From a virus (taxonomy: Duplodnaviria; Heunggongvirae; Uroviricota; Caudoviricetes): a stretch of DNA of 7,334 bases. The stretch is taken from IMG/VR virus record IMGVR_UViG_2639762982_000003; one strand, written 5' to 3'. Below the pieces are notes generated by a model. The model was not told the origin of the DNA. It saw only the letters and a program-made list of their open reading frames with translations, and did no database searches. A program made the position numbers and the translations under genes. Shown here one piece after another: positions 3,285 through 3,632 of the stretch; position 1 is the first letter of the stretch, and each line of letters begins with the position of its first letter.

Positions 3285-3359
3285 TGGAGCGGGTAGCGGG
3301 AATCGAACCCGCATCATCAGCTTGGAAGGCTGAGGTAATAGCCATTATACGATACCCGC
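3285..3359 (-). tRNA. tRNA-Gly (anticodon UCC), glyT-like
   Basis: 75-nt cloverleaf on the minus strand: acceptor GCGGGTA/TACCCGC, D-loop with GG, anticodon stem TCAGC/GCTGA, loop CUUCCAA (UCC), T-loop TTCGATT, discriminator U, encoded CCA. Near-identical to E. coli tRNA-Gly(UCC) as recalled. Confidence 0.85.
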
Positions 3360-3362
3360 ATA

Positions 3363-3438
3363 TGGTGCCGACTACCGGAATCGAACTGGTGACCTACTGA
3401 TTACAAGTCAGTTGCTCTGCCTACTGAGCTAAGTCGGC
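3363..3438 (-). tRNA. tRNA-Thr (anticodon UGU)
   Basis: 76-nt cloverleaf: acceptor GCCGACT/AGTCGGC, U8 A9, D-stem GCTC/GAGC, anticodon stem ACTGA/TCAGT, loop CUUGUAA (UGU), T-loop TTCGATT, discriminator A, encoded CCA. One A-C mismatch in the T-stem. Confidence 0.7.
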
Positions 3439-3440
3439 AC

Positions 3441-3517
3441 TGGACCGCCACCGGGGACTCGAACCTCGCACACTCAACTTAAAGGGTTGACGCTCTTTCC
3501 TGATGAGCTAGTGGCGG
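3441..3517 (-). tRNA. tRNA-like gene, anticodon loop CCUUUAA (UUU, Lys, in canonical register); non-canonical, possibly a pseudo-tRNA
   Basis: 77-nt cloverleaf: acceptor CCGCCAC/GTGGCGG, U8 A9, D-stem GCTC/GAGC, perfect 5-bp anticodon stem TCAAC/GTTGA, T-loop TTCGAGT, encoded CCA. Position 33 is C rather than the near-universal U, and the T-stem has an A-C mismatch. Confidence 0.5.
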
Positions 3518-3518
3518 C

Positions 3519-3594
3519 TGGTGGCCCTTGCTGGATTTGAACCAGCGACCTGGCGATTATGAGTCGCTCGCTCTCACCACTGAGCTAAAGGGCC
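3519..3594 (-). tRNA. tRNA with anticodon CAU, ileX/ileZ-like (tRNA-Ile2 read as AUA after lysidine modification, or elongator Met)
   Basis: 76-nt cloverleaf: acceptor GGCCCTT/AAGGGCC, D-stem GCTC/GAGC, anticodon loop CUCAUAA (CAU), T-stem GCTGG/CCAGC, T-loop TTCAAAT, discriminator A, encoded CCA. Closely resembles E. coli ileX as recalled. Separated from the next tRNA by 1 nt. Confidence 0.75.
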
Positions 3595-3603
3595 GGGCGC
3601 AGG

Positions 3604-3632
3604 ATAATAACGTTACGAAATCAATGTTGCAA
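3604..3632 (-). promoter_or_regulatory. candidate sigma70 promoter driving the tRNA array
   Basis: Minus-strand -35 TTGCAA (3632..3627), 17-nt spacer, -10 TATTAT (3609..3604). The predicted start falls 2-3 nt upstream of the first tRNA 5' end at 3594. Confidence 0.45.

Follow-up and report, generated by a model that had tools for sequence, protein, structure and literature searches.

A four-tRNA cassette in the late region of lambdoid prophages of Escherichia coli, related to the ileZ–argN–argO array of Stx phages and including a UUU tRNA apparently remodelled from argN

Between the antitermination gene Q and the lysis genes of a lambdoid prophage, in a 7,334-nucleotide (nt) stretch of Caudoviricetes DNA (IMG/VR record IMGVR_UViG_2639762982_000003, here called the window), lie four tRNA genes packed end to end behind a promoter-like sequence of their own. 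We think it probable that these genes are a module of the prophage's late operon that supplies tRNAs, with the same ancestry as the ileZ–argN–argO cassette of Shiga toxin (Stx) phages, and that they are not a set of pseudogenes. All four are on the minus strand and, in order of transcription, carry the anticodons CAU (positions 3594–3519), UUU (3517–3441), UGU (3438–3363) and UCC (3359–3285). ARAGORN and the Rfam model RF00005 agree on every one, with Rfam scores of 72.5, 44.4, 71.4 and 65.6 bits, respectively, all above the gathering threshold of 29 bits, and E-values from 7e-15 to 4e-07. Each gene encodes its own CCA end, and the spacers that follow the first three CCAs are G, GT and TAT: 1, 2 and 3 nt. 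These are four real tRNA genes, then, and the tight array described in the original prediction, which had been made from the letters of the window, is there as described. The CAU, UGU and UCC tRNAs have U33; the UUU tRNA has C33, instead.

Sequence comparison makes the array homologous to the known Stx-phage cassette, of which it is a variant, and a widespread one. That Stx and related phages carry tRNA genes in this slot, and that the anticodon set here differs from theirs, had both been noted before, and both are right. The link is more than positional, because the core promoter and ileZ are identical in the two and the second gene is a homologue of argN. As in Stx phages of the 933W and Stx2a_F349 type, the array comes after Q, begins with the same core promoter, and has ileZ first. 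The second Stx gene, argN, shares with the UUU tRNA its T arm, an A51×C63 mismatch in the T stem, the pair C1–G72, the discriminator U73 and a 1-nt spacer, and scores about as high in Rfam. In Stx phages, however, the anticodon of that second gene is UCG, not UUU with C33; the third gene is argO (UCU), where here there are copies of host thrU and glyT, the latter an added fourth gene (UCC); and a toxin gene lies downstream, whereas none follows the cassette here.

A scan of IMG/VR anchored on the T arm of the second gene (tRNA2) found at least 120 loci, which together with L001, L002 and the window make 123; phage counts here and below are among these IMG/VR loci as listed. More than 90 of the 123 have the array in the form Ile2, UUU, Thr, Gly, with spacers of 1, 2 and 3 nt, and seven have the Stx-type array. 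An intermediate also exists: at 12 loci (L005, L012, L051 and L062 among them) ileZ and the UUU gene with C33 are followed, after 13 nt, by argO (UCU). The UUU gene of this intermediate has a 1-nt deletion in its D arm, and genomes of O157, O111 and O145 also contain this allele (97.4% identity), which the NCBI Prokaryotic Genome Annotation Pipeline (PGAP) leaves unannotated there. The four-gene array is known to automatic annotation pipelines; a literature search on ileZ, argN and argO, and on prophage Lys–Thr–Gly arrays, found no paper that describes it.

The first gene is straightforward. Its CAU anticodon is as predicted, and PGAP types the tRNA as tRNA-Ile, not tRNA-Met. It is 100% identical to ileZ of Stx2a phage F349, and 107 of 116 phage copies are identical. 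Its acceptor stem is GGCCC…GGGCC, on an ileX-like body with C4–G69 and C5–G68. These two pairs are determinants for TilS, and by sequence the CAU tRNA is of the tRNA-Ile2 type, a predicted substrate for lysidine formation. Both the Rfam alignment and an energy evaluation place an A27×C43 mismatch at the top of its anticodon stem, which is present in 112 of the 116 copies; the other four have A43.

The second gene is the unusual one. The original prediction had called it the third tRNA; its oddities are real, but it is third only in plus-strand order and second in transcription. Both oddities are as reported, the C33 (in the loop CCUUUAA) and the T-stem A51×C63. The UUU tRNA can be aligned from end to end with the argN (UCG) of Stx2a F349; the T arms are identical, and 12 positions differ in all. 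Three of these belong to the anticodon loop (U33>C, C35>U and G36>U) and convert CUUCGAA to CCUUUAA. Five are in stems, and in all of them pairing is kept or improved: U7·G66 becomes C–G, G3·U70 becomes G–C, U27·G43 becomes U–A, and G30–C40 becomes A30–U40, the last of these a compensatory double change. At 43.0 bits argN scores much like the UUU tRNA, and so the low score of the latter is a trait of the backbone rather than a sign of recent decay. In the window (3441–3518), in argN (L002 2631–2708) and in all other variants, those with a 7-nt spacer included, base –1 of the second gene is A or G and could therefore pair with U73.

Other properties also argue that the UUU copy of the window is intact. 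Of the 21 pairs in its cloverleaf 20 are standard; the exception is the mismatch that it has in common with argN. Folding to the minimum free energy (MFE) misses the cloverleaf of this tRNA, as it does those of host lysT, thrU and ileZ, and the energies of cloverleaf and MFE structure were compared, instead. For the UUU tRNA these are –22.3 and –25.0 kcal/mol, a gap similar to that of lysT and better than that of argN. Judged by disrupted stems and lost conserved elements the window copy is not a pseudogene, and the earlier suggestion that it might be a decaying pseudo-tRNA is weak: the mismatch and the score are argN's too, nearly all pairs are standard, and the energy gap is like that of lysT. 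A different anticodon register was considered and rejected, as no other 5-bp stem with a 7-nt loop can be drawn, and ARAGORN, Rfam and PGAP all read UUU. PGAP, with tRNAscan, keeps the UUU register and names copies of at least 98.7% identity tRNA-Lys; the shifted register that would have refuted the original prediction did not appear.

What kind of tRNA would this be? The anticodon UUU followed by A37 and A38 supplies the main identity element for lysyl-tRNA synthetase (LysRS), and U36-A37-A38 also provides the context for N6-threonylcarbamoyladenosine (t6A). The body is not that of a tRNA-Lys: the discriminator is U73 rather than A73, the first pair is C1–G72, and the homology is to argN, not to lysT. 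Nor is U33, commonly regarded as invariant, present. The gene thus appears to be a paralogue of argN that has been given a new anticodon loop while its stems stayed paired. LysRS reads the anticodon and should charge it, and it should decode AAA and AAG; as an expressed, processed and charged tRNA it is putative. The case resembles what Saks et al. in 1998 reportedly described as tRNA gene remolding, or recruitment, in which identity changes by anticodon mutation. The body of a paralogue is kept and the anticodon family is switched, in this instance from Arg (UCG) to Lys (UUU). It differs in that the change has occurred within a mobile phage cassette, that U33 has been lost as well, and that the switch in charging is a prediction.

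The third and fourth genes are copies of host genes. The Thr(UGU) tRNA is K-12 thrU but for U20>C in the D loop (99% identity; 71.4 bits against 73.8 for thrU), and the Gly(UCC) tRNA is K-12 glyT but for two differences that make one compensatory change, C6–G67 to U6–A67 (97% identity). In other phages the copies are often exact: 69 of 100 Thr genes are identical to thrU, and 63 of 94 Gly genes to glyT. Near-identity to K-12 genes rules out a pseudogene reading for both. The A–C mismatch that had been noticed in the T stem of the Thr tRNA, and taken as a possible sign of decay, is there, as A52×C62; it is native rather than degenerate, because functional host thrU has the same one. Thr and Gly come in the same order as in the host thrU–tyrU–glyT–thrT (tufB) operon, with the difference that the cassette lacks tyrU, the 116-nt spacer and thrT, and joins Thr to Gly by 3 nt. 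On this evidence the pair looks like a capture from that operon from which tyrU and the spacer have been removed.

The cassette is common, and it is far more uniform than its surroundings. A tRNA2 gene of the UUU type is found in 798 of 5,426 complete E. coli genomes, 519 of the copies being non-identical, and the 521-bp region as a whole is covered to at least 80% in 328. Nucleotide diversity (pi) is 0.006–0.03 in the tRNA genes compared to 0.27–0.37 in the mosaic flanks, and homology stops exactly past the CCA of the Gly gene. A scan of GTDB species representatives finds this tRNA2 backbone in two species only, E. coli and Shigella flexneri. The commonest UUU allele is identical in 67 of the 123 loci. 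Degenerate scans of IMG/VR found just two loop states on the backbone, CUUCGAA and NCUUUAA, and turned up neither another anticodon nor a UUU tRNA without C33, the anticodon UUG not being included in the scans.

The promoter-like sequence, TTGCAA-N17-TATTAT, lies at 3632–3604 on the minus strand, 9 nt before the mature 5′ end of ileZ. Its match to the consensus is not in itself above chance: sites with 9 of 12 matches number six per 2 kb where 3.0 ± 1.8 are expected. Its conservation is more telling. From –35 through –10 the sequence is identical in Stx2a_F349, 77 of 87 recovered copies are identical, and its columns are ~90–99% conserved across 81 aligned loci. The site proposed earlier thus holds up: it travels with the cassette and is the same in Stx phages. 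Farther upstream there is a second pair of signals, also on the minus strand: a pR′-like late promoter candidate, TTGCAA-17-TATATT, at 3777..3805, which overlaps the end of Q and has 9 of 12 matches in the promoter scan, and a tR′-like intrinsic terminator at 3702..3725, where the terminator scan finds a 10-bp hairpin and U run. The hairpin begins about 50 nt after the pR′-like promoter and folds as AACCCGC…GCGGGUU then UUUUUGUG, with a z of –2.76. We take these to follow the Q–pR′–tR′ architecture of lambdoid phages, and the sites at 3702–3805 look like a Q-dependent pR′–tR′ unit, separate from the tRNA promoter and upstream of it. Because the tRNA promoter lies past the terminator, and because the same core is found in the Stx2a phage, the cassette is suggested to be a self-contained module that is also read through by Q-modified polymerase.

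If so, the genes would be transcribed from their own conserved sigma-70-like promoter, with a leader of a few nt, and during lytic growth a second route would open by Q-antiterminated read-through from pR′–tR′. RNase P and 3′ trimming would then release four tRNAs with CCA ends already encoded. Three of these would be ordinary decoders: ileZ for AUA, the thrU copy for ACA and ACG, and the glyT copy for GGA and GGG.

Are such decoders of use? Codon frequencies were compared between a complete phage that carries the cassette, PhiR47_1, a 50-kb sample of K-12, and lambda, which has no tRNA genes. Per 1000 codons, in that order, AUA is used 7.6, 4.3 and 9.7 times, ACA 13.0, 8.5 and 13.1 times, GGA 12.5, 8.7 and 12.9 times, and AAA 36.8, 31.0 and 36.7 times. 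The first three are thus enriched 1.4–1.8× in the carrier phage over K-12, and AAA by only 1.2×. Tempering this, tRNA-less lambda is equally enriched, and so codon use cannot set carrier phages apart. The host has one copy each of thrU and glyT and two of the ileX/ileY gene, all of them minor decoders, and for that reason the cassette does raise the dosage for codons that phages prefer. Plausibly, then, the extra copies of ileZ, thrU and glyT help late translation. The original prediction had proposed that the tRNAs supply AUA, ACA and GGA decoding for AT-rich cargo genes. The enrichment of these codons bears it out in part, but lambda shows the same, no cargo gene lies downstream (there is a 650-bp non-coding spacer, instead), and AAA goes unexplained. 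Host Lys(UUU) tRNA is encoded by five genes in one K-12 cluster, and lysV is a further host gene for it. Codon supply fails to account for the UUU tRNA because the host already has those five clustered genes.

The strongest of the alternatives is that the cassette is a matter of codon and dosage supply pure and simple, with ileZ and the thrU and glyT copies the useful members and the UUU gene a crippled relic of argN, functional barely or not at all, that hitch-hikes along with them. We regard this as unlikely; the following observations speak for it or weigh against our own interpretation. The near-universal U33 of the U-turn has given way to C33, U73 stands where tRNA-Lys has A73 as its discriminator, A51×C63 is mispaired, and the Rfam score is only 44 bits; between them C33 and U73 may reduce decoding and charging. 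The diversity of tRNA2 is 3–5 times that of its neighbours, the highest of the four genes. Two of its common lineages are damaged, one by the 1-nt D-arm deletion and the other by C4U/U8C/C11U; neither is annotated by PGAP, and damaged alleles of this kind account for a large part of the 519 copies that are non-identical in the 798 genomes. Polymorphism within the UUU family gives no sign of selection, either. When 14 distinct variants of tRNA2 and argN are tested for covariation, 94% of cells are paired but only one change is double-sided; the pair count is not significant, as it is reached in 137 of 500 shuffles. A tally of variants finds similar rates of variation in stems and loops and is uninformative; because the scan was anchored on the T arm, that arm could not vary, which biases ascertainment.

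Several features are nevertheless hard to square with a relic. Three simultaneous changes in the loop produced a clean sense anticodon complete with U36-A37-A38. The five stem differences from argN all preserve pairing, one by a double compensatory change. More than half of the loci share one identical allele, and the IMG/VR scans, in which UUG was not among the anticodons sought, show neither other anticodon states nor U33 revertants on this backbone. The low Rfam score, finally, is a family trait. These considerations lead us to prefer a supply module in which the UUU tRNA, too, has a part to play.

The likeliest part, were it to have one, would be that of a spare tRNA-Lys that the anticodon nucleases of the host do not recognize. 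Three such systems bear on the matter. AriB, the nuclease of PARIS, has Lys(UUU) and Thr(UGU) among its prime targets; the former is no longer cleaved with U39>A, and less well with A41>C or U16>C, and tRNA variants of phage T5 rescue infection (PMC12409363). Infection in the presence of PrrC170 is rescued by phage tRNA-Lys, and poorly by E. coli tRNA-Lys (PMC11555353). P2-OLD, which restricts lambda, kills by cleaving thrU at paired CNG motifs, positions 28–30 and 40–42 (PMC12445682). Where host tRNA-Lys has U36AAUCA41 and U16, the cassette UUU tRNA has U36AAGUU41 and C16, and it thus lacks the AriB determinants U39, C40, A41 and U16. The argN scaffold (L002 2632–2708) has two CNG motifs, C28A29G30 and C40U41G42; the UUU tRNA has CAA and UUG, both motifs having been lost through the change of G30–C40 to A30–U40.

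The parallel with the anti-PARIS tRNA of T5 is close in some respects. Both combine the anticodon of a nuclease target with substitutions at AriB determinant positions: A39, C41 and C16 in T5; G39, U40, U41 and C16 here. It is less close in others. T5 is a virulent, tRNA-rich phage, whereas here we have a temperate lambdoid prophage; the UUU tRNA is built on a tRNA-Arg scaffold and has C33; the Thr copy is not a variant; and the resistance of the UUU tRNA is predicted from its sequence. A nuclease-insensitive spare tRNA-Lys is, in short, an attractive idea. In its most specific form it would have the argN scaffold turned into a nuclease-proof tRNA-Lys(UUU) by a switch of anticodon, by the replacement of U33, which adjoins the classical PrrC cut site, with C, and by the rewriting of positions 30 and 39–41, such that the AriB site and both CNG motifs disappear. 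Stated so fully, the idea is a tentative one that we would sooner doubt than defend. With respect to C33, the only cleavage data found in the literature concern yeast gamma-toxin, for which U33C is without effect on cleavage.

Might the entire cassette be a counter-defence device? On this account it would replenish Lys(UUU) and Thr(UGU), both prime targets of AriB and the latter of P2-OLD as well, a nuclease that specifically restricts lambdoid phages, the one by resistance built into its sequence and the other by massive late over-expression or competition. The published target lists match two of the four anticodons (PMC12409363, PMC12445682), the UUU tRNA is without AriB determinants and the CNG motifs of argN, and the cassette sits behind a late promoter. 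We consider it improbable all the same. In the Thr copy the AriB site of the host tRNA, U16 and the two CNG motifs for P2-OLD are all intact, and in most phages the copy is identical to the sensitive host tRNA; with every host determinant retained, it should be open to cleavage. Over-expression of host thrU protected little or not at all against P2-OLD (PMC12445682). Asn(GUU) is not among the cassette tRNAs. We know of no nuclease that targets Ile2 or Gly(UCC), moreover, which counts against the scheme. To judge from the sequences, counter-defence is attractive for the UUU tRNA and weak for Thr.

That the UUU RNA is no decoder at all is very improbable. On this account it would inhibit some enzyme that targets tRNAs, or serve it as a decoy, or else help as a spacer or in processing to release its neighbours. 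Competition by overexpressed viral tRNAs has been raised as a possible means of inhibiting AriB (PMC12409363), and pairing of base –1 with U73 might, as an eighth acceptor pair, shift the RNase P cut and free the CCA end of ileZ directly, but a decoy would have no need of a perfect sense anticodon in a loop of 7 nt, of U36-A37-A38, of an encoded CCA or of a complete cloverleaf.

The surroundings of the cassette are those of a lambdoid late region. In order of transcription the open reading frames (ORFs) encode a DUF968 protein, RusA and Q, then come the tRNAs, and then two holins, an M15 peptidase (endolysin) and an HNH protein; the order matches the PGAP annotation of L001, an E. coli prophage 98% identical to the window locus. 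Q occupies 3789..4484 on the minus strand (PF06323, Phage_antiter_Q, E 2e-89; ‘bacteriophage antitermination protein Q’ in L001), and the first holin gene, with which the lysis cassette starts, 2235..2627 on the same strand (PF16931, Phage_holin_8; start mapped from the PGAP annotation of L001). The position between Q and the lysis genes that had been read from the sequence is thereby borne out. Between the last tRNA and the holin (2628–3284, minus strand) is an AT-rich stretch of ~650 bp, the slot in which Stx phages have stx. No coding sequence is annotated there in L001, and comparison with phages gave no informative match except to the region upstream of a phiP27-like holin. The terminator scan finds a weak terminator-like hairpin at 3243..3261 on the minus strand, 24 nt past the last tRNA in the non-conserved downstream flank. 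Within the spacer there are two strong ones, at 3017–2997 (2997..3017, minus strand; AACCGCCTCTATCGGGCGGTT then TTTTTTTATTC) and 2667–2652.

Elsewhere in the window, a 51-aa ORF at 7009–7164 (minus strand), upstream of DUF968–RusA–Q, corresponds to the type I toxin gene hokD in the annotation of L001. Three further minus-strand ORFs have no Pfam match: 1396–1647 (83 aa), which comes after the M15 endolysin, in the place expected of a spanin, and 6473–6865 (130 aa) and 872–1168 (98 aa), both AT-rich with a GC content of 0.38–0.40. PhiR47_1 (L126), which has the same four-tRNA cassette, carries an annotated PanA/PanT toxin–antitoxin system at its left end (308–1352), and in L011 and L023 ARAGORN makes an additional call, a candidate tRNA-Val(AAC), ~645 nt past the Gly gene.

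The view of phage tRNAs has recently shifted, from helpers in codon use to countermeasures against tRNA-cleaving immunity, on evidence from virulent, tRNA-rich phages such as T5. The present cassette is a compact, four-gene module of temperate lambdoid prophages, found in about one in seven complete E. coli genomes, and with decoders for Lys(UUU) and Thr(UGU) it covers both prime PARIS targets. Its UUU gene offers what appears to be a clean natural case of a change in anticodon family with the body of the tRNA kept, and it is a widespread tRNA gene without the near-universal U33. Should that gene prove inert, the finding shrinks to an ordinary variant of a known cassette. Should it prove nuclease-proof, some 15% of E. 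coli genomes would carry a temperate-phage counter-defence tRNA that arose by identity remolding, and the thrU copy beside it would be part of that same contest with PARIS and P2-OLD.

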